Source of the DNA: Bacillota bacterium
GTDB lineage: Bacteria; Bacillota; Clostridia; Christensenellales; CAG-917
Length of the DNA stretch: 64,000 nt
NCBI GenBank assembly: GCA_023665365.1
Contig: JAMPEA010000001.1
Location: forward strand, 83,914 to 147,913
Direction: 5' to 3'
The notes below the pieces were generated by a model. It was given only the letters and a program-made list of their open reading frames with translations. It was not told where the DNA came from and ran no database searches. The translations under genes were made by a program, and so were the position numbers. This document shows positions 1,988-37,385 of this stretch, one piece after another (the first letter of the stretch is position 1; the number at the start of each line of letters is the position of its first letter).

Positions 1988-2019
1988 AAAAAGAAAAGAG
2001 GCGGCTCTTGCGCCGACCC
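1988..2019 (-). terminator. Intrinsic terminator downstream of rnpB
   Basis: Minus strand reads GGGUCGGC-GCAAGA-GCCGCCUC (imperfect stem) followed by UUUUCUUUUU. Confidence 0.5.
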
Positions 2020-2024
2020 TTTTC

Positions 2025-2348
2025 ATATGCGAGATTAGTCTGTAAGCCGAGTTCTGTCTTAGACGGTCATCTATCTAGATACCGCATCTCTGCGATATTC
2101 AAGCGATGTGCGGAGCGTGCGGGCAACACTTATGCTCCAATCTTGCATCGGGGTGGGGTTTACATCGCGCATTGTCGCCAAATTGCGGGTGAGCTTTTAC
2201 CTCGCCTTTCCATCCTTACCGCATACGCGGCGGTTTTTTTCTGTTGCACTGTCCTTAAAGTCGCCTTTACAGGGAGTTACCCTGCACCCTTGCCCTGTGA
2301 TGCTCGGACTTTCCTCGAATATTTCACGCGACCGTCCGGCTAACTCGC
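2025..2348 (-). ncRNA. rnpB: RNase P RNA, bacterial type A
   Basis: Minus strand contains GAGGAAAGUCCGAGC, CAGUGCAACAGAAA..ACCGCC, GGUAAGG..GAAAGG..GGUAAAAGC.CACC, GUAAACCCCACCC and ACAGAACUCGGCUUACAG in the order seen in E. coli M1 RNA. The P1 helix is GCGAGUUAG (2348..2340) paired with CUAAUCUCGC (2038..2029). Confidence 0.93.
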
Positions 2349-2354
2349 AAAATT

Positions 2355-2383
2355 GTTATAGCATATTTTTTATATGTATGCAA
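2355..2383 (-). promoter_or_regulatory. Sigma-A type promoter of rnpB (TTGCAT-17-TATAAC)
   Basis: -35 at 2383..2378 and -10 at 2360..2355. The predicted start is G2348, the first nucleotide of the P1 strand. Confidence 0.6.
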
Positions 2384-2423
2384 GCACATTGCTTGCAGAA
2401 TTTAGCTGCGGACAGTAATTAGA

Positions 2424-2457
2424 TAAAAAATACGAGTTAGTCCGTCCGGCTAACTCG
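2424..2457 (-). terminator. P1-like hairpin plus U tract at the repeat junction (copy 1)
   Basis: Minus strand reads CGAGUUAG-CCGGACGGA-CUAACUCG (perfect 8 bp stem) followed by UAUUUUUUAU. Confidence 0.55.
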
Positions 2458-2534
2458 CAAAATTGTTATATCATATTTTTTATATGTGTGCAAGCACATT
2501 GCTTGCAGATTTTTAACTGCGGATAGTAATTAGA

Positions 2535-2568
2535 TAAAAAATACGAGTTAGTCCGTCCGGCTAACTCG
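2535..2568 (-). terminator. P1-like hairpin plus U tract at the repeat junction (copy 2); first terminator met by recN transcription
   Basis: Same hairpin and U tract as at 2424..2457. It lies about 60 nt downstream of the recN stop. Confidence 0.55.
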
Positions 2569-2623
2569 CAAAATTGTTATATCATATTTTTTATATGTGT
2601 GCAAGCACATTGCTTGCAGATTT

Positions 2624-4315
2624 TTATTGCAAGCTATCCTTATATCTCTGCGCCCATGCTTTCATTTCTTCGGCGTGCGGTATGGCAAACCTACTGTAAT
2701 CGTTGCCGCCAATCAGACGCGCCACCTCGTCGGTATCGTCGTCGAGTAACGTCACGTGCGTAAGCGTCTTTCCGTTTTCGGTGGATTTACTTATCAAATA
2801 ATGGCTGTCCGCCATTGCCGCAAGGCTCGGCATATGCGTGACTGCGATGACTTGACGACCGCGGGATATATTGCAAAGTTTTTCAGATACCACAGCAGAG
2901 ATATTGCCCGAAATCCCCGTATCTATTTCGTCGAAAACCATAGTGCCGATGCCGTCAATACCCGCAACTATATTTTTGAGCGCAAGCATAAAACGCGACA
3001 TTTCACCGCCGGATATAATCTTTGCGAGCGGTTTAAGCGGCTCTCCGACGTTCGGCGAAATCAAAAATTCCACCGTATCCGCACCGTTTGAGGTTATATC
3101 GTCAATTTCTGTTGCGGTTTTAACGTCAACCTTAAAAGTCGAGCCGCCCATGCCGAGGTCTTTCAACTCTTTAATTATGGATTTCTCAAACTCGACTGCG
3201 ACCTTAATGCGCAAAGCGGTCAGTTTTTGCGCACATTCCAAAAGACGCTCGCCGCTCTTTTTGATTTCTCTTTCGAGTATTATAACGCGGTCGCCCGCAT
3301 TCGACAAAACGTCGGCTTCTTCCTTGGCTTTGACGTAAAAATTTTGCAAGGACTCGTAATTGCCGCCGTACTTTCTTAAAACTGCGCGGACTTCTTCAAG
3401 CCTGCTTTCGATTTTGTCTGCCGAGCGACTGTCGAAATCGAGCTTGTCAAGCATATCTGAAAGCGTTGCGCTGATATCCTCGATTTCGAGTTTTGCGCTG
3501 TCAAGCCTGTCGGTGAGCGCGGGAATATCCTCGTCGTACGACGCAATCGTATTGAGCACCGATGCCGCGCTTTTAAGCTCAGCGCCTACACCGCCATTAT
3601 CATAGCCGTCAAGCGCTGACTTTGCCGACTGCAATGCCGACAAAATCTTTTCCGTATTGCGTATACGTTTGCGTTGGGCAAGCAAAGTTTCCTCCTCGCC
3701 CTCTTCAACGTTTACGCGCTCGATTTCTTCGAGTTGATAATTCAGTATATCGAGCCGTCTTTCTCTCTCGGCGCTGTCGCCGTATCTCGATAGCTCGCGC
3801 TTGAAATCGCTATATATATTGTAGGCTTTTAGAGTATCTAATTGGGCGTTTTTGATTTTACTTTCGCCGATAGTGTCCAAAAGCGCGATGTGCGTAGAAC
3901 TTCTGAGCAATGATTGATGCTCGTGCTGTCCGTGTATATCGACAAGCAATTCCGTAAGCCCTTTGAGGATTGAAAGCGTCGTAACTCTGCCGTTTATTCT
4001 GCATTCGTTTTTGCCCTCGGCTGTCATCTTGCGGCGTAATATCAAAATATCTTCCGCTTCTATGCCGACGTCGTCGAGATAGGTTGAAATCTGCGGATTT
4101 AAATACTCCTCGAAAACAGCCTGCACAACCGCATAATCCGTTCCGTAGCGTATAAGAGTTTTGTCCGCCCTTTCGCCGAGAACGAAATTAAGCGAGTCTA
4201 TGATGATAGACTTGCCCGCGCCCGTTTCGCCGCTAAGAATATTCAGCCCGTTTTCAAGCGTAAGTTCAAGCTTGTCTATCAAAGCGACGTTTTCAATGCA
4301 CAACTGTCTCAGCAT
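2624..4315 (-). CDS. recN: DNA repair protein RecN
   Basis: 563 aa. N-terminus is MLRQLCIENVALIDKLELTLENGLNILSGETGAGKSIIIDSL (Walker A). It has an SMC-like coiled coil, a C-terminal GGEMSRFMLALK signature and a DEIDTG Walker B. Confidence 0.95.
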   Translation of the reverse strand: MLRQLCIENVALIDKLELTLENGLNILSGETGAGKSIIIDSLNFVLGERADKTLIRYGTDYAVVQAVFEEYLNPQISTYLDDVGIEAEDILILRRKMTAEGKNECRINGRVTTLSILKGLTELLVDIHGQHEHQSLLRSSTHIALLDTIGESKIKNAQLDTLKAYNIYSDFKRELSRYGDSAERERRLDILNYQLEEIERVNVEEGEEETLLAQRKRIRNTEKILSALQSAKSALDGYDNGGVGAELKSAASVLNTIASYDEDIPALTDRLDSAKLEIEDISATLSDMLDKLDFDSRSADKIESRLEEVRAVLRKYGGNYESLQNFYVKAKEEADVLSNAGDRVIILEREIKKSGERLLECAQKLTALRIKVAVEFEKSIIKELKDLGMGGSTFKVDVKTATEIDDITSNGADTVEFLISPNVGEPLKPLAKIISGGEMSRFMLALKNIVAGIDGIGTMVFDEIDTGISGNISAVVSEKLCNISRGRQVIAVTHMPSLAAMADSHYLISKSTENGKTLTHVTLLDDDTDEVARLIGGNDYSRFAIPHAEEMKAWAQRYKDSLQ

Positions 4316-4362: not shown

Positions 4363-4821
4363 TTATTTATTGAGCAAAGTTTCAAGCCTTTCGCGCACGA
4401 TTTCTGTGTTGTCGAGGCTGTCGATAGCAACGAATATCGTATTGTCCCCTGCGATAACTCCAAGCACTTCCTCATAGCTCAGCTTATCGATAAATTCGGC
4501 GGCAGGACCTGCGCTTCCGACCTCGGTTTTGAGGACGACGAGATTTTGCGAACTGCGTATGGATATAACCGTATTTTTAAACATATTCAAAAATTTATCC
4601 GAAGCGTTCGTCTCTTTTGTGCGCTGAACGGCGTACTTATAATGACGACCGTCCGAAGAAAGAGTTTTGATTATGCCCATATCCTTAATATCGCGCGAGA
4701 TTGTAGCTTGCGTGATATTGAAGCCTTCGCATTTGAGTTTTTCGACAAGTTCTTCCTGAGTATCGATGTCGTACTTTGAAATAATTTCCAAAATTTTGAG
4801 TTGACGGTTTGCTCTTATCAT
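4363..4821 (-). CDS. argR: Arginine repressor ArgR/AhrC
   Basis: 152 aa with a winged-helix N-terminal domain (QEELVEKLKCEGFNITQATISRDIKDMG) and a C-terminal GVIAGDNTIFV motif. The argR-recN adjacency is conserved. Confidence 0.9.
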   Translation of the reverse strand: MIRANRQLKILEIISKYDIDTQEELVEKLKCEGFNITQATISRDIKDMGIIKTLSSDGRHYKYAVQRTKETNASDKFLNMFKNTVISIRSSQNLVVLKTEVGSAGPAAEFIDKLSYEEVLGVIAGDNTIFVAIDSLDNTEIVRERLETLLNK

Positions 4822-4880: not shown

Positions 4881-5684
4881 TTATTTAAACGTTGTGCCCC
4901 ATCTATTCATTTTAGTAAGCAGTTTCGAGTAAAAATTATCCTCTTTGCAGGATAAAAATGCAGCCTTTTTTTGCGAGCGCGACACGTTTACGACCCCGCC
5001 CTTTTTAAGCCCTCCGTTGTTTGCGCCGTCAATAGAAACTGTGGCGCAAAGCTCGCCTGATAACCTTACCTCTATCTCGGATTTCGAGCTTACGACAAGC
5101 GGACGCGAATGCAGCGAATGCGCGCATATCGGAATAATCAAGATAGCCTCCACGTTCGGAGCAAGCACGGGACCGCCCGCCGAAAGCGAGTATGCCGTTG
5201 ACCCCGTAGGAGACGCGACTATAAGCCCGTCGCTGTGGAACGTGTCGGCAAATTTTCCGTCCACGCTTACGTCAAGAGTTATCGGACGGTTGCCTGCGGT
5301 TTTGATGACCACTTCGTTTAACGCGTTAAATTGCGCCTCGCCGTTGATACCTACATCAAGCAGCATACGTGAAATCGGCTTACCTGCTTTTAAGCAATTC
5401 ACCACCTCGCCGCAATCGGCGTTCTGCTCATACTCTGTCAAAAAGCCCAAATTGCCGAGATTTACACCCAAAATAGGAATATTTTTTCCGTTCAAGGAGC
5501 GCACTGCGTCCAGCACCGTTCCGTCTCCGCCGAAAACCAGCACCCTGTCCGTATCCGAGGCAATTTCGCTTGAATTGGAATATTCACGCACAGTGCAATC
5601 GCTGTCGGCTCTCAACAAATCGAGCACTCCGACGCGCGTAAAATCTTCCGTCATATTGGGTTTTGTGATGACCGCTATATTCAT
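4881..5684 (-). CDS. nadK: NAD kinase
   Basis: 267 aa with GGDGT, NLGNLGFLTE and TGSTAYSLSAGGP motifs. Confidence 0.93.
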   Translation of the reverse strand: MNIAVITKPNMTEDFTRVGVLDLLRADSDCTVREYSNSSEIASDTDRVLVFGGDGTVLDAVRSLNGKNIPILGVNLGNLGFLTEYEQNADCGEVVNCLKAGKPISRMLLDVGINGEAQFNALNEVVIKTAGNRPITLDVSVDGKFADTFHSDGLIVASPTGSTAYSLSAGGPVLAPNVEAILIIPICAHSLHSRPLVVSSKSEIEVRLSGELCATVSIDGANNGGLKKGGVVNVSRSQKKAAFLSCKEDNFYSKLLTKMNRWGTTFK

Positions 5685-5809: not shown

Positions 5810-6523
5810 TTAAAGCGTTTTTTTAACGTACAAGAGATATTCGATATTTTTATTTTGATAGCGTATCGGCGACGTGGCTATACCTACGATTTGAAATCCG
5901 AGCGAGATTGCGCATGCCTTGATTCCGTCAAGCGCGCGGACGCGCAATTTTTCATTTGTGACAATCCCGCTTTTGCCGAGCGCGGATTTATCAAGTTCAA
6001 ACTGCGGTTTGACTAGTACGACCGCCTCGCCGCCACCGTTCAGTATGCGAAATATTTCCGGCAACACCAGCTTTAACGAGATAAAGCTAACGTCCGAACA
6101 TACGAAATCGACCTTGTGAAAATCGCTTAGAAGTTCCCTCGCGTTTGACCTTATAAATTTCACCTTGCCGCTTTCCAAAAGCGAAGGATTTAAAGCGCAC
6201 TCGGCTACGTCAACAGCGTATACGTATTTTGCGCCGCGCCTTAAAAGGCAATCTGTAAATCCGCCGTTAGAGCAACCGATATCGGCGCATACTTTGCCCG
6301 TCACGCTAAGCCCGAACTTCAAAAACGCCTCTTCGAGTTTATATGCCCCCTGCGAAGCGTATCCGTCGTCAAAAATTTCTACTACGTCGCCATCGTTTAC
6401 GCTATAAGAAGGTTTGACCACAACGTTGCCGTTGACAAAAACTCCGCCCGTTTTTATCAGGTTTTCTGCATAAGTGCGCGAACGCATATCATAGGTGATT
6501 TGTAAGTAACGGTCAAGTCGCAT
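5810..6523 (-). CDS. tlyA: TlyA-family rRNA 2'-O-methyltransferase (S4 domain plus FtsJ-like domain)
   Basis: 237 aa. MRLDRYL...N-terminal S4 domain and a DIGCSNGGFTD SAM-binding motif. Confidence 0.9.
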   Translation of the reverse strand: MRLDRYLQITYDMRSRTYAENLIKTGGVFVNGNVVVKPSYSVNDGDVVEIFDDGYASQGAYKLEEAFLKFGLSVTGKVCADIGCSNGGFTDCLLRRGAKYVYAVDVAECALNPSLLESGKVKFIRSNARELLSDFHKVDFVCSDVSFISLKLVLPEIFRILNGGGEAVVLVKPQFELDKSALGKSGIVTNEKLRVRALDGIKACAISLGFQIVGIATSPIRYQNKNIEYLLYVKKTL

Positions 6524-6603: not shown

Positions 6604-7377
6604 TCAGTCGTTTTGTTCGTCGATATTCTTTTCGTCGGACGCGCGCTTCACTTCCTTATTGGATTTCTTTTGCAAACTATCCTTTTTGCGGATTTTGCGC
6701 TCGTCCCTATTGAATATCGACACTATGCGAGCTACGAACATAACGAAATCTTTGGAGTTGTTTATGGCGATATTTTTCATAAACGCCTTGCCGCCTATCG
6801 TGACTGCGGATACCACTGCCGAGATGATGATTGTAAGCCACCTTTGCCACTCATCGCCGAGCGAAATTGCGATTTTGACAACGACCGCGGCAGAGCACGC
6901 ACCCGATATGATGCCGAAAATATCGCCGATTACGTCGTTACAGATACTCGACACAGTGCCGCTGTTTCGCACAAGCCAAAGCGCGGTCTTTGCGCCGTGT
7001 ACCTTTCTCGACGCCATAGAAGCAATGGGCGCAATATCGCATGAAGTCACCGCCACGCCGATGGAGTCGAAAAGTATACTGGCGAGTATCAAAAACGCGA
7101 GCAGCAATATGATAATCACTATCTGCTCGGCAGAAGCCGTAAGCTCGCTTAAAAAACTGAAAAAGCCCGCCAATACGAACGAAATGACGGATGCTTTGAG
7201 CCACCAAATATTGCGTTTTTTCTTTACCTTTTTGCGCTTGCCGTCAGCCGACTCGGAAGTTTTGGCTATTTCCTTGTCAAGTGGTTGCGCAGACTGAGCC
7301 GACACGCGTTCCGGCACAGCGGGCGTGTTGTCTGAATCGTCTTGAACGCTTAAATCTTTATCGTTTAAAGTATCCAA
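6604..7377 (-). CDS. Four-TM membrane protein with basic N- and C-terminal tails; candidate OapA-like partner of the upstream large ncRNA
   Basis: 257 aa with a TTG start (AAGGAG 4 nt upstream). Four hydrophobic helices, a KRKKVKKKR patch before TM1, an NDVIGDIFG (DxxxD) motif in TM3 and a lysine/arginine-rich C-terminal tail. It lies directly upstream of tlyA-nadK-argR-recN. Confidence 0.6.
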   Translation of the reverse strand: MDTLNDKDLSVQDDSDNTPAVPERVSAQSAQPLDKEIAKTSESADGKRKKVKKKRNIWWLKASVISFVLAGFFSFLSELTASAEQIVIIILLLAFLILASILFDSIGVAVTSCDIAPIASMASRKVHGAKTALWLVRNSGTVSSICNDVIGDIFGIISGACSAAVVVKIAISLGDEWQRWLTIIISAVVSAVTIGGKAFMKNIAINNSKDFVMFVARIVSIFNRDERKIRKKDSLQKKSNKEVKRASDEKNIDEQND

Positions 7378-7442
7378 AATGCTCCTTGTAATCTATATTA
7401 TGTAGCCTAATGCTAACGTATGCTCCAATAAATATATCCGCC

Positions 7443-7787
7443 CAAGCAAAAGATTTTGCGAATGTTGCGGGAGTTGCTATGTCGGCAAAAGTGAACAGCA
7501 AAAATCTTTTGCGCAGTAGGACAAGGAAGCCTCACCCTACACTTGTTTTGATTTTCAAGCGCCGCAGGCGCGTCACCAAGCAAAAGATTTTGCGAACGCA
7601 GCGGGAGTTGCTACGTCAGTAAAAGTGAACAGCAAAAATCTTTTGCGCGGTAGGACAAGGAAGTCTCGCCCTACACTTGTTTTGATTTTCAAGCGCCGTA
7701 GGCGCGTCACCAAGCAAAAAATTTTGCGAACGTTGCGGGAGTTGCTATGTCAGCAAAAGTGAACAGCAAAAATCTTTTGCGCGGTAG
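7443..7787. repeat. Tandem 134 bp repeat, about 2.6 copies, rich in GCAAAA-N2/3-TTTTGC palindromes
   Basis: Units start at 7443, 7577 and 7711 (caagcaaaagattttgcgaa...). Copies differ at a few positions. No credible ORF is present. Confidence 0.95.
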
Positions 7788-7789
7788 AT

Positions 7790-8440
7790 GCAACAAAATC
7801 AAGTCACGGCTTTGGCAAAGCAAAATTTTTTTGCTTTGTCGTGCCGTTTACGCTGATTTTGTTGCGAGGTGGCAACAACTTGGGTAAACCTTGCGTCTTA
7901 GGTTCGGTAGGATTTCCCTGTGCGAAAACTTGCCGTCGCCGTGCAAGACGTTTCCGATTACTTCGCACATTCTTGCGAAAACCGAATCGCCACTTAGTAC
8001 ACACTATAATCCCCAAGTTGTTACGCGAACGAACAGTCTAGAAGATTTCCTTGGCAGATTCCCTCCGACCTTATCTTTTTTTGCAAAGCGGATTTCGATG
8101 AGCAATCGCCGATGCGTATTGGCCATACGGCAAGAGCGTGAATCTCAAATCCCTCCGCCTCACTCAAAGCAGGCTACACTGTACACAGCACGTAAGCACC
8201 GCATAAACAGGTTTCACCCCAGTCAGTAGAGGATTTGCGCCTCTACCGAGTTGGGTCTCCACGGCAGTTGGGTCGTGATTTGTATGCCATTACAAGTCGC
8301 CCAAAAACCTTAACTCCCAGCAACAGCCCCGATTTGGGCAAAAGAAGCCATCACCAGAAACTTCATCGATATGCCCTTCGACGATATTTTACCCCCGTCT
8401 CCGGCACGGCGGAATCTGACTAGAATACTGCGCCACCATT
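7790..8440 (-). ncRNA. Large (about 650 nt) structured non-coding RNA, OLE-like by size and gene context
   Basis: No long ORF in any frame. A consensus promoter sits just upstream. Long-range complementary segments: GGUGGC (8437..8432) with GCCACC (7873..7868), and an 11 bp pair at 8022..8012 with 7884..7874. Local hairpins include 8226..8246. A roughly 75 nt 3' rod spans 7790..7865 (12 bp outer stem plus 10 bp inner stem). The context (RNA, 4-TM protein, tlyA-nadK-argR-recN) matches what I recall for OLE RNA loci. Confidence 0.6.
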
Positions 8441-8446
8441 TATATT

Positions 8447-8474
8447 ATTATATCAATACTTTAAAATATGTCAA
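8447..8474 (-). promoter_or_regulatory. Consensus sigma-A promoter (TTGACA-16-TGaTATAAT) driving the large ncRNA
   Basis: -35 TTGACA at 8474..8469 and extended -10 TGATATAAT ending at 8447. It lies directly after the recG stop. The predicted start is near 8440. Confidence 0.7.
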
Positions 8475-36977: not shown

Positions 36978-37070
36978 TGGCGGAGAAGAAGAGATTCGAA
37001 CTCTTGAACCGCTTGTGACGGTTACGCGATTTCCAGTCGCGCGCCCTCGACCAAACTAGGCGACTTCTCC
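36978..37070 (-). tRNA. tRNA-Ser (anticodon GGA), class II with a long variable arm and encoded CCA
   Basis: Minus strand reads GGAGAAG-TC-GCC-TAGTTTGGTCGA-GGGC-G-CGCGA-CTGGAAA-TCGCG-TAACCGTCACAAGCGGTTC-AAGAG-TTCGAAT-CTCTT-CTTCTCC-G-CCA, which folds as a cloverleaf. Confidence 0.93.
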
Positions 37071-37200
37071 AAAAGATTTGTGGAGAAGGCGTCCAAAGGT
37101 TTCACGACTTCTCCAAAGATTTATTGGGAAGTCGTCCAAACGTCCAGCGACTTCTCCAAAGATTTGTGGGAAGTCGTCCAAAGGTCTTCACGACTTCTCC
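37061..37200. repeat. Tandem 43/44 bp repeat (3 units plus the tRNA 5' end); each unit starts with the first 10 nt of tRNA-Ser
   Basis: cgacttctcc recurs at 37061 (the tRNA itself), 37105, 37148 and 37191. The spacers are about 85-90% identical. Confidence 0.95.
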
Positions 37201-37385
37201 AAAGATTGTTTAAAAAAAATGGGTTGCAGTTGAAGGAAGAATGGACAACAAAACCATTTCCCTCAACTGTACATCATTTTGAGGATTTGAACCCTCTATA
37301 ACCCAACGAAAAGATTATATCTTAACGGCGGCGTTTTGACAAGTAATTACGACGATTATTTTGTCGAATTTTGTAAAATTTCGTA

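Follow-up and report, generated by a model that had tools for sequence, protein, structure and literature searches.

In the window, that is, the whole 64,000-nt stretch of DNA that was analysed, recN closes a long operon on the minus strand and is followed by rnpB, and the space between the two genes is occupied by a 111-bp unit present 2.7 times (Tandem Repeats Finder: 96% matches, score 548; Table 1). The initial annotation had reported a 110/111-bp unit in about 2.7 copies, which this result reproduces. The stop codon of recN (TAA, 2626-2624) forms the distal edge of the array, and at the other edge the array runs into rnpB and includes its nucleotides 1-17. The RNaseP_bact_a model was matched over its full length (model positions 1-367) from 2347 to 2026, with 237.4 bits against a gathering score of 100.

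Unit alignment resolved the array into two alternating segments. Segment X (73 nt) contains a palindrome, a promoter, and rnpB nt 1-17; segment J (38 nt) contains the complement of P1, a T tract, and a spacer. The upstream units A (distal) and B (middle) differ from each other at 2 positions, and the proximal unit C lacks 1 nt and shows 4 differences over 73 positions. The stretch GCGAGTTAGCCGGACGG was found in three exact copies (2332-2348, 2442-2458, and 2553-2569), whereas the chance expectation is 0.25 even when 3 mismatches are allowed.

Table 1. Features of the recN-rnpB region and of the separate tRNA-Ser array, with their positions in the window and the evidence for each.
Feature	Position	Strand	Evidence
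recN, final gene of the upstream operon	2624..4315	-	ORF 4315->2624; Pfam SMC_N/AAA_23 on identical product
Whole array, X-J-X-J-X	2332..2626	-	Tandem Repeats Finder, 111 x 2.7; unit alignment
Distal promoter copy, TTGCAC-17-(TGa)TATAAC, predicted +1 G2569	2576..2604	-	Sequence; conserved layout
P1-copy hairpin and U tract, unit A; first terminator-like structure after recN	2534..2569	-	Exact copies; fold
Middle promoter copy, TTGCAC-17-(TGa)TATAAC, predicted +1 G2458	2465..2493	-	Sequence; conserved layout
P1-copy hairpin and U tract, unit B: GCGAGUUAGCCGGACGG, then ACUAACUCG, then UAUUUUUUAU	2423..2458	-	Exact copies; fold
Palindrome TGCAAGCA-3-TGCTTGCA over the proximal -35	2379..2397	.	Exact-copy search; identical copies at 2489-2507 and 2600-2618
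Proximal promoter, TTGCAT-17-(TGc)TATAAC, then AATTTT, G(+1) at 2348; predicted to make RNase P RNA	2355..2383	-	Sequence; conserved layout
rnpB, class A RNase P RNA	2026..2348	-	Rfam RF00010; predicted start G2348; Rfam model starts at C2347
Terminator of rnpB, AAAAGGGUCGGCGCAAGAGCCGCCUCUUUUCUUUUU	1988..2024	-	Fold, -17.5 kcal/mol
43-nt unit x 3.4 running into the 5' end of tRNA-Ser(GGA); separate from the rnpB array	37061..37207	-	Tandem Repeats Finder; ARAGORN

The promoter hexamers lie where they had been placed previously (Table 1), and the -35 of the distal copy lies 21 nt past the recN stop codon. The initial annotation had called these good promoters. The hexamers themselves are imperfect: TTGCAC and TTGCAT match TTGACA at 3 of 6 positions, TATAAC lacks the final T, and a simple sigma-70 consensus scan called no promoter in the array. 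For these reasons it is the TGn of the extended -10, together with comparative evidence, that carries the description. When 16 rnpB-type modules from 13 loci across relatives were compared, every module showed the layout -35 / 16-17 nt / TGn / -10 / 5-6 nt / G(A) before rnpB or the P1 copy. TTG at the -35 position and the TG of the extended -10 were present in all of them, the -10 read TAnAAn in nearly all, its final base being T, C, A, or G across relatives, and the distance from the -10 to the G or A opening P1 or its copy was always 5-6 nt. This common layout is in line with the earlier prediction that transcription starts at the G that opens P1. At one locus (L082) a promoter of the upstream type is the sole promoter before the essential gene, which argues that such promoters must be active.

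In both upstream units the predicted start opens GCGAGUUAGCCGGACGG, which is identical to rnpB nt 1-17 and thus corresponds to P1 plus part of the 5' strand of P2. The upstream copies fold as UGCGAGUUAGCC-GGAC-GG-A-CUAACUCGUA, then UUUUUUAU, with free energies of -14.9 to -15.8 kcal/mol (z = -4.8 to -5.7), and none of 200 shuffles was as stable. Of the 8 nt after the hairpin, 7 are U in the window, both units carrying UAUUUUUUAU. The structure therefore has the stable G+C stem-loop and the directly adjoining U tract of an intrinsic terminator, and the earlier description of the upstream copies as ending in a hairpin and U tract holds by fold and by sequence. A simple terminator scan missed these hairpins owing to its bulge and loop definition. 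On the minus strand, no other hairpin with a U run was found between 2626 and 2570, from recN to the first hairpin, and the view that this hairpin is the first terminator for recN is reasonable. In common with intrinsic (Rho-independent) terminators, the stem-loop is stable (about -15 kcal/mol), leads into UAUUUUUU, and stands after the last gene of an operon; unlike in ordinary ones, its 5' arm and loop exactly reproduce nt 1-17 of the gene that follows, and it begins at +1/+2 of a promoter.

The palindrome TGCAAGCA-NNN-TGCTTGCA, described earlier as an 8-bp hairpin with a 3-nt loop over the -35, occurs in exactly three copies (chance expectation 0), folds with -10.4 kcal/mol (z = -2.9), and has a terminator-like score on the plus strand. 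The palindrome thus stands as described within the window; however, it is absent from the relatives' modules and is specific to the window's species. Units A and B contain a 20-codon ORF running from an ATG in the palindrome loop to a TAA inside the hairpin, for which a coding role was dropped because it lacks a ribosome-binding site and relatives have not preserved it. A remnant of an integrase attachment site was also rejected, the repeats being copies of the 5' end in a short tandem register with no element between them. A permissive Rfam search of the array returned only sub-threshold noise, with RsaOG as the top match (26 bits against a gathering score of 50).

Two sources for segment J were considered, and alignment supported neither. 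Derivation of its tail from the 3' flank of rnpB, which would make the units internally deleted rnpB genes, was matched or exceeded in score by 1493 of 2000 shuffles, and no significant similarity to the relatives' recN terminators was detected, only the low-complexity TATTTTTTA being matched at L086. The base opposite C10 is A in the window and in L097, like in the real 3' strand of P1, and the fully complementary G in L092 and L082; this A is the one remaining sign that may hint at a mini-gene origin of the upstream units.

The combination of promoter and P1-copy hairpin was found in three further species-level lineages of the same uncultured Christensenellales-like group. The rnpB array is a real feature, common to related gut Clostridia, with varying copy number. 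L092, whose RecN is 85% identical, has two diverged modules that also show a 111-nt period; conservation is confined to the promoter elements (-35, TG, and -10) and to the 17-nt copy with its complement, and the spacers match at 7 of 17 positions. In L082 the hairpin forms a 34-nt read-through leader behind the sole promoter and has no U tract. The sequence after the hairpin is a weak tail, AUAUUGUU, in L092, AACCAAU in L082, and AA in L097, so that the hairpin, shared by all four lineages, is the conserved part and the U tract is not. In all four the copy ends at nt 17, beside a CC/GG mini-stem, and the 5' arm is identical to P1, with no joint drift with its partner. Third codon positions of recN are 43-54% identical between these species; neutral sequence is therefore saturated, and the hairpin nevertheless persists. 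The initial annotation had also stated that the upstream promoters yield only an RNA of about 33 nt and then stop. The U tract in the window agrees with this, but the weak tail in L092, the absence of a U tract in L082, and the AA in L097 do not, and a terminated 33-nt product may be limited to the window's species.

Close relatives have one ordinary promoter, which gives a range of copy numbers from 1 to 3. The arrangement in the window is indeed unusual, as proposed before, since most relatives have a single promoter and an ordinary recN terminator where the hairpin would be. L103 has a single copy, no hairpin, and no obvious recN terminator; its recN is 92.5% identical to that of the hairpin-bearing L097, and the two share their upstream flank. 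The single promoter of L091 consists of the -35 flank of the L082 distal module and an TAACCAAT remnant of the L082 proximal module. The comparison of rnpB upstream regions that had been proposed earlier shows that the hairpin recurs in other lineages and that the copy number varies among related species; free variation in repeat number had been named beforehand as pointing to a slippage product. In two other relatives, L093 (124 bp x 2.4) and L099, it is the 3' end of rnpB that is tandemly repeated. The gene is inverted in L001 and L093. Some relatives' contigs were considered to end at a repeat, which was rejected because these ends fall inside conserved rnpB. A scan of JGI metagenomes for GTTAGCCGGACGGNCTAAC gave 3 matches, all by chance, in unrelated GC-rich DNA with no rnpB nearby.

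The window contains a second array of related design. The gene for tRNA-Ser(GGA) (37070->36978, ARAGORN) is preceded by units in each of which tRNA nt 1-10 are repeated and paired with a complement (-14.5 to -15.1 kcal/mol), and this complement reaches bases that are unpaired in the real tRNA. These units lie in the leader and have neither a promoter nor a U tract, suggesting a cause more general than promoter or terminator function. The window has four tandem arrays in its 64 kb: two extend over the 5' end of a stable-RNA gene, and another is separated from OLE by no more than about 70 nt. The 134-bp array beside OLE was considered as a partial copy of OLE and rejected. A scan of the loci for other tRNAs with upstream copies of their 5' ends covered 4 tRNAs only and had no power.

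A literature search for repeats or partial duplications upstream of rnpB found no relevant report. The structure had been treated as unique, which does not stand: a clear precedent exists in E. coli, where rnpB and tyrTV have repeats of part of the gene at their 3' ends. Tandem repeats of 113 bp at the 3' end of E. coli rnpB were reportedly described by Reed and Altman in 1983, and a check of the MG1655 sequence located a 113 bp x 3.5 array over this end. Like the array in the window, it has a unit of about 110 bp in about three copies with 96% unit identity, overlaps one end of rnpB, and combines in each unit a partial copy of a terminal-helix strand with a terminator hairpin. In contrast, the window array is placed at the 5' end with a full promoter in its units, and its copied strand, the 5' strand of P1, is paired with an added complement; each unit thus forms a self-contained promoter-hairpin-terminator cassette. 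In E. coli tyrTV, an array of 178 bp x 3.1 (95% identity) overlaps the 3' end of tyrV. As in the window, the array in this tyrT/tyrV region (rttR/tpr) begins within the gene of a stable RNA, whose terminal segment (here 19 nt) it repeats, and part of the array is annotated as the small RNA RttR, which indicates that such repeats can yield RNA products. It differs in its location on the 3' side, in units without a promoter, and, in the part examined, in having no closure by a complement. The window array thus starts in a gene and repeats its terminal segment as the E. coli arrays do, but those are located 3' and transcribed by read-through only, whereas this one is located 5' with a promoter in each unit. 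Because of its location and its own promoters it is a variant rather than a member of the E. coli rnpB/tyrT type, and by analogy it is the 5'-side counterpart of these 3'-end repeats.

Tandem promoters reading into stable-RNA genes are classical (rrn P1/P2), and E. coli rnpB itself is said to have tandem promoters (reported by Motamedi, Lee, and Schmidt in 1984, a paper cited in PMC11251521). The window resembles the rrn P1/P2 type in having several promoters of the same sense with a G start, spaced by about 100-120 bp ahead of a stable-RNA gene. In the classical case, however, the upstream promoter reads through to the gene and neither promoter is a copy of the other, whereas in the window the upstream promoters are exact repeats, each immediately followed by a terminator-like hairpin. 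Their transcripts are predicted to stop at the hairpin and U tract in the window and to continue in L082.

We consider that the locus is best explained by recombination-driven tandem amplification of an rnpB promoter/terminator module, to which we give a rough probability of 0.55. This reading starts from the array anatomy, the conserved promoter layout and hairpin, the variation in copy number, and the E. coli parallel; the activity of the promoters, the termination, and the insulating and sequestering roles are predicted from sequence. All three promoters would be of the sigma-A type with an extended -10, each starting at a G. The proximal one would produce RNase P RNA, the mature 5' end being the transcription start, and the two upstream promoters would lead straight into a 10-11-bp hairpin and UAUUUUUU, with most transcripts ending at about 33-36 nt. 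Both upstream hairpins would be the only terminators keeping the long recN operon from reading into rnpB. The local complement would pair the orphan 5' strand of P1, and a read-through transcript would then offer no second strand to the real 3' strand of P1. Finally, the array would grow and shrink by unequal recombination between repeated promoter segments, which would explain why related species carry 1, 2, or 3 copies and, in one instance, a deletion derivative. Such dynamics are suggested by the pair L103/L097, by the mosaic of L091 and L082, and by the near-identity of units A and B compared with the diverged unit C.

Some observations narrow what the module can be for. Since conservation of the U tract does not extend to L092, L082, and L097, termination may be recent and species-specific and not the reason for the element. 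Since L103 has neither hairpin nor obvious recN terminator, insulation from recN is not indispensable. Judging from the sequences compared, the lasting identity of the 5' arm to P1 is not explained by supposing that any terminator hairpin would do.

A different possibility, which we regard as unlikely but the foremost of the alternatives, is that the upstream promoters feed RNase P RNA, that termination is partial, and that the conserved feature is the 5'-terminal hairpin of a longer precursor. Such a hairpin would shield the 5' end, for instance against a 5'-to-3' exonuclease, or guide folding and processing, and the U tract in the window's species would merely tune the amount of read-through. 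The L082 leader, the weak tail of L092, the tRNA-Ser units without promoter or U tract, the sharing by four lineages of the hairpin and not of the U tract, and the classical nature of tandem promoters before stable-RNA genes are all in line with this. In the window, however, the hairpin and UAUUUUUU resemble a strong terminator, twice in series; a leader of 111-222 nt would require a processing step; and the predicted start of single-copy relatives coincides with the mature 5' end.

It is distinctly less probable that each upstream module encodes an RNA acting in trans, a triphosphorylated hairpin of about 33 nt with the sequence of the outer part of P1. Such an RNA might, for example, titrate a factor that recognises RNase P RNA by its paired ends, or it might modulate the assembly or turnover of RNase P. 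In each of the four lineages a complete promoter directly precedes the hairpin, whose 5' arm has not departed from P1, the distal module of L092 has kept its promoter elements and not its spacer, and two identical copies in the window strain would raise the dosage. The contacts of the RNase P protein are with P2-P4, with J18/2, and with the leader of the substrate; to our knowledge, neither this protein nor any other factor is known to bind P1, which counts against such a role. Furthermore, several close relatives have lost the module and show no visible compensation, a free hairpin could be released from the L082 and tRNA-Ser versions only by processing, and no Rfam family was matched.

A mutational by-product, to which we assign a slightly lower likelihood again, would imply that in this lineage fold-back (inverted) copying and slippage readily occur at the ends of stable-RNA genes, that the hairpins are the footprints left by this process, and that the arrays are neutral and transient. 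The same tandem design of 5'-end copy and complement at tRNA-Ser, with a complement extending to bases unpaired in the tRNA, is what such a process would leave, as are the clustering of the window's arrays at or near stable-RNA genes, the single copy end-point at nt 17 beside the CC/GG mini-stem, and the rearrangements of rnpB in relatives (3'-end arrays in L093 and L099, inversions in L001 and L093). Against this, a neutral 10-nt complement should not outlast the saturation seen at synonymous sites, and the promoter elements are intact in the diverged distal module of L092. A mutational origin is, moreover, compatible with present use and overlaps with the tandem amplification that we prefer.

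A collapsed or expanded repeat in a metagenome-assembled genome is extremely improbable: units A and B share about 102 identical nt that short-read graphs cannot count reliably, and the sole other assembly with a three-unit array is from the same strain, but copy-specific substitutions fix the order of the units unambiguously, the diverged copies of the two-module L092 version can be neither collapsed nor invented, and hairpin modules occur in independent samples (SRR21474242 and SRR21474238, SRR23219239 and SRR23219686). The other assembly, GCA_023666605.1 (locus L081), has an identical array and is 100% identical to the window over 5.9 kb, and therefore represents the same strain. Because of the exact stretch shared by A and B, which a short-read assembly could undercount, three copies are to be read as a minimum.

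A speculative extension, which we hold to be doubtful, would unite the rnpB modules and the tRNA-Ser acceptor-stem copies in an undescribed class of selected "terminal-helix mimics" controlling the maturation, folding, or stability of the adjacent RNA. Such a mimic would be a short hairpin that copies the 5' strand of an end-pairing helix (P1 or the tRNA acceptor stem) in several Christensenellales-like species. It would act in cis as a three-strand switch between mimic, anti-strand, and real 5' strand, or in trans through decoy RNAs from promoters of the rnpB type.

If the upstream modules of the amplified array are active, these species provide a natural series of one, two, and three copies and a leader-only derivative at rnpB, which would allow the effects of promoter multiplicity, of termination close to the promoter, and of an additional helix strand on the synthesis and folding of an essential ribozyme to be compared. 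The rnpB and tRNA-Ser arrays of the window, the 3' repeats of its relatives, and the E. coli rnpB and tyrTV arrays suggest that end-repeats at stable-RNA genes are recurrent across phyla. They may arise from mutational bias at highly transcribed structured genes or from selection, for terminators or strand sequestration. Even if neutral, such arrays call for caution in annotation and metagenome assembly, as contigs may break at these sites; in one of the three further hairpin-bearing lineages, the contig breaks at the hairpin.

The recN-rnpB gap holds a single tandem array, for which Tandem Repeats Finder (TRF) reported a period of 111, 2.7 copies, 96% matches, and a score of 548. On the minus strand, the order is X-J-X-J-X, where X is a promoter segment ending with rnpB nucleotides 1-17, and J contains the complement of the P1 strand (P1 being the end-pairing helix of RNase P RNA), a T tract, and a spacer. 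Segment X (73 nt) has its first base at the recN stop codon and includes a palindrome (TGCAAGCA-AUG-UGCUUGCA), a promoter (TTGCAC, a 17-nt spacer with TGa at its end, TATAAC, and AATTTT), and terminal GCGAGTTAGCCGGACGG, which corresponds in the Rfam alignment to the P1 5' strand and part of P2. Segment J (38 nt) consists of ACTAACTCG, TATTTTTT, and ATCTAATTACTATCCGCAGT, in that order. Units A (distal, nearest recN) and B (middle) differ at 2 positions; proximal unit C, which runs into the true rnpB, differs at 4 of 73, is 1 nt shorter, and has TTGCAT for TTGCAC and TGc for TGa in its promoter. The rnpB 17-mer occurs exactly three times, far above chance, and so does the palindrome. The upstream copies fold as a 10-11-bp hairpin (-15.8 kcal/mol, z = -5.7) with UAUUUUUUAU directly after it. 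The TRF array, the three 17-mers and palindromes, and the hairpin with UAUUUUUUAU confirm the coordinates and description of the initial annotation. The only other assembly with this array (GCA_023666605.1) is 100% identical to the window over 5.9 kb and therefore represents the same strain; identical A/B-type units are possibly undercounted in assembly. A 20-codon ORF can also be read in units A and B, from an ATG in the palindrome loop to a TAA inside the 3' arm of the hairpin, but it is probably meaningless: a ribosome-binding site is lacking, and relatives do not preserve it.

Positions of features in the window
Feature	Position	Strand	Evidence or description
rnpB, class A RNase P RNA, full length	2347->2026	minus	Rfam, 237 bits
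Tandem array, recN-rnpB gap	2332-2626	read on minus	TRF
20-codon ORF, unit B	2433-2495	minus	
20-codon ORF, unit A	2544-2606	minus	
recN ORF, 563 aa, upstream of rnpB	4315->2624	minus	SMC_N/AAA_23 domains
Downstream ORF of the operon	6604-7377		
Array, 134-bp unit x 2.6	7442-7787	minus	92% identity; between OLE RNA and downstream ORF
OLE RNA, full length	7853-8452	minus	422 bits; in recN operon
tRNA-Ser(GGA)	37070->36978	minus	
tRNA-Ser array, 43 nt x 3.4	37061-37207	minus	TRF; runs into tRNA-Ser(GGA) 5' end
Predicted structured RNA, ~100 nt	37205-37342	minus	-32.7 kcal/mol, z = -3.8; after the promoter below, just upstream of the tRNA-Ser array
Near-consensus promoter, TTGTCA-17-TATAAT	37342-37314	minus	precedes the structured RNA above

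RecN grouped the window organism with uncultured Christensenellales-like Clostridia (best GTDB representatives 63-72% identical), a placement that the OLE (ornate large extremophilic) RNA in the recN operon fits; OLE RNA is also present at related Christensenellales-like loci. Closer relatives (RecN 80-87% identical) were chosen from metagenome proteins, and their loci were compared. Their recN DNA is 72-79% identical to that of the window, with only 43-54% identity at third codon positions, so neutral sites are saturated. When 16 modules from 13 loci were anchored at the first base of P1, the layout TTGxxx / 16-17 nt / TG / TAnAAn / 5-6 nt / G or A appeared in all 16. A consensus promoter scan over the array gave no match; the predicted promoter, with its start at the mature 5' end, rests on conservation and not on hexamer quality. 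The comparison thus supports the proposal that transcription would begin at the G opening P1. One promoter only is present in L084, L091, L085, L086, L103, L099, L003, L004, and L005, usually with an ordinary recN terminator upstream of it. Just upstream of this single promoter, L003 has a 34 bp x 2.5 tandem repeat (5858-5940) and L099 one of 43 bp x 1.9 (4389-4470), neither containing any part of rnpB.

The P1-copy hairpin, in which rnpB nucleotides 1-17 are closed by their complement, was found in three lineages besides that of the window. In L092 (RecN 85%), the recN stop is directly followed by TTGCAA-17-(TGt)CAAAAT-AAAAT-GCGAGTTAGCCGGACGG-GCTAACTC-ATATTGTT, and a second promoter with the true rnpB follows at a distance of exactly 111 nt; the two promoters have the consensus elements alone in common (spacers match at 7/17), and TRF detected no repeat in this locus. 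L097/L098 (RecN 81%) have the promoter and then GCGAGTTAGCCGGACGGACTAACTCGAA, after which the contigs of both samples stop, as a repeat would be expected to cause. In L082/L083 (RecN 86%, two samples), a single promoter precedes ACGAGTTAGCCGGACGGGCTAACCCGT-AACCAAT and the true rnpB, so the hairpin forms a 34-nt leader without a U tract. Just before rnpB in L082, TAACCAAT matches the -10 and discriminator of the relative L091 (TATAACCAATAT), so L082 resembles an array of two modules from which the U tract, the spacer, and most of the proximal promoter have been lost. In L091, the only promoter has the -35 flank of the distal L082 module (AGTATyCGCTTGC) joined to the proximal -10 remnant of L082, the composite expected if two X copies had crossed over. 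L097 has a sister, L103 (recN 92.5% identical), with which it shares the upstream flank; L103 has one promoter and lacks the hairpin. In a RecN neighbour-joining tree, the hairpin lineages (P0001, P0004, P0006, and P0012) are interleaved with hairpin-free ones, which fits an old architecture that easily collapses to one copy. The feature is real, and versions of it are conserved across no fewer than four lineages at species level. Many metagenome contigs in the group end inside rnpB, 100-165 nt into the gene (L082-L087, L092, L100, L101, and L103), and those of L097 and L098 break off precisely where the P1-copy hairpin lies. Assembly in this group fails at RNA-gene segments that are conserved and repeated, and arrays of this kind should therefore be under-represented in MAGs.

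The four aligned hairpins keep the 17-nt copy with a single change (G to A at position 1 in L082) as well as the complement nCTAAC(T/C)C(G/A), and all fold well (-13.5 to -15.9 kcal/mol). Opposite C10, the window and L097 have A, like the real P1 3' strand; L092 and L082 have G, which gives full complementarity. The tails after the hairpin differ: UAUUUUUU in the window, AUAUUGUU in L092, AA and then the contig end in L097, and AACCAAU followed by rnpB in L082. What stays constant is therefore the arrangement in which an rnpB-type promoter fires into a hairpin of the P1 5' strand and its complement, and not "a terminator". Of the dead-end hairpin proposed initially, the comparison of rnpB upstream regions across relatives retained the promoter firing into the hairpin but not the U tract; the relatives show the predicted hairpin, not termination, as the constant. 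The palindrome over the -35 is present in the window's species alone.

The simplest interpretation is of a promoter/terminator array that unequal recombination has created and changed in length. In the window's species, both upstream hairpins, each with a strong U tract, would stop the recN-operon transcript and also those of the two upstream promoter copies, yielding RNAs of ~33-36 nt, while the proximal promoter would make the RNase P RNA. The local complement would occupy the orphan P1 strand, leaving the real P1 3' strand free of competition from read-through RNA. The functional picture first annotated, with three promoters in use, two short dead-end transcripts, and a recN terminator, is plausible for this species. 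A purely terminator rationale is opposed by the non-conserved U tract, by the L082 leader form, and by L103, which manages without the hairpin and without an evident recN terminator. A read-through precursor stabilised or guided by its own 5' hairpin fits the L082 leader and sits less easily with the terminator-like hairpins of the window; we consider it unlikely.

Whole-window TRF (score >= 80) found four arrays, two of which overlap the 5' end of an Rfam-detected stable-RNA gene and a third of which lies within ~70 nt of OLE. Each unit of the tRNA-Ser array has a ~11-nt leader, a copy of tRNA nucleotides 1-10 (GGAGAAGUCG), a loop, and a complement; the copy (GGAGAAGTCG) and complement fold at -14.5 to -15.1 kcal/mol in each unit. 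Promoter and U tract are both missing from these units, and the complement extends over bases that in the real tRNA do not pair with its 3' end. Since a tandem upstream "5'-end copy plus complement" occurs at tRNA-Ser too, the design is not specific to rnpB. The parallel points to a general cause, whether a mutational mechanism or a broader requirement that orphan 5' strands be sequestered, and lessens the case for explanations tied to binding of the RNase P protein. A P1-mimic small RNA acting in trans, for which the predicted mini-transcripts would be candidates, is a doubtful alternative. A neutral origin, with the hairpins left as traces of fold-back copying and slippage, could account for both arrays, and is slightly less probable again; the promoter elements and the hairpin are kept where neutral sites are saturated. 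An assembly artefact is very improbable, given the copy-specific substitutions in the units and the hairpin modules of other lineages.

The predicted RNA between the near-consensus promoter and the tRNA-Ser array is closed by the helix UGGGUU/AACCCA and contains a T-arm-like GAGGGUUCAAAUCCUC together with a long hairpin and a U8 run; it matched no Rfam family. The array next to OLE contains several small hairpins (GCAAAAGATTTTTGC and similar), and comparison showed it to be a partial copy of neither OLE nor the downstream ORF.

The window array is a 5'-side variant of already known stable-RNA gene-end repeats. In E. coli K-12, a 113-bp unit x 3.5 (96% identity) follows rnpB, starts inside its 3' end, and carries a terminator in every unit; reportedly, this is the repeat of Reed and Altman (1983). 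A 178-bp unit x 3.1 at tyrT/tyrV overlaps the last 19 nt of tyrV and is annotated rttR/tpr. Tandem promoters upstream of E. coli rnpB are said to have been described by Motamedi et al. in 1984, a paper cited in PMC11251521. Within the clade, L093 (GCA_910578325.1, CAJTQT010000002.1; 4304-4595) has a 124 bp x 2.4 repeat (96%) at an inverted rnpB, its unit being the last ~50 nt of rnpB, P1 3' strand included, plus a terminator; in every extra copy, the truncated edge is likewise closed by an inverted repeat (CATCTATCT...AGATAGATG). L099 carries one or more additional copies of the rnpB 3' end (~4930-4968). The window array resembles these repeats in period, copy number, gene-end overlap, and a predicted terminator per unit, but differs in lying on the 5' side, in the full predicted promoter in each unit, and in the added complement that closes the copied strand. 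No Rfam family matched it, and no description of such a 5' array was found in the literature searched. The E. coli precedent removes much of the surprise. What it leaves is a concrete, testable question, namely what makes repeats of this type build up at stable-RNA gene ends, resting on the conserved promoter-driven P1 copy, the natural series of one, two, and three copies with the leader-only form, and the tRNA-Ser parallel. Related species differ in which way rnpB faces relative to recN: the gene is inverted in L001 (5874-6194) and L093 (4543-4863), and L095 may be a third case, with a minus-strand match to rnpB positions 257-314 where its contig ends (5392-5448). In L004 and L095, recN is followed by additional inserted ORFs.
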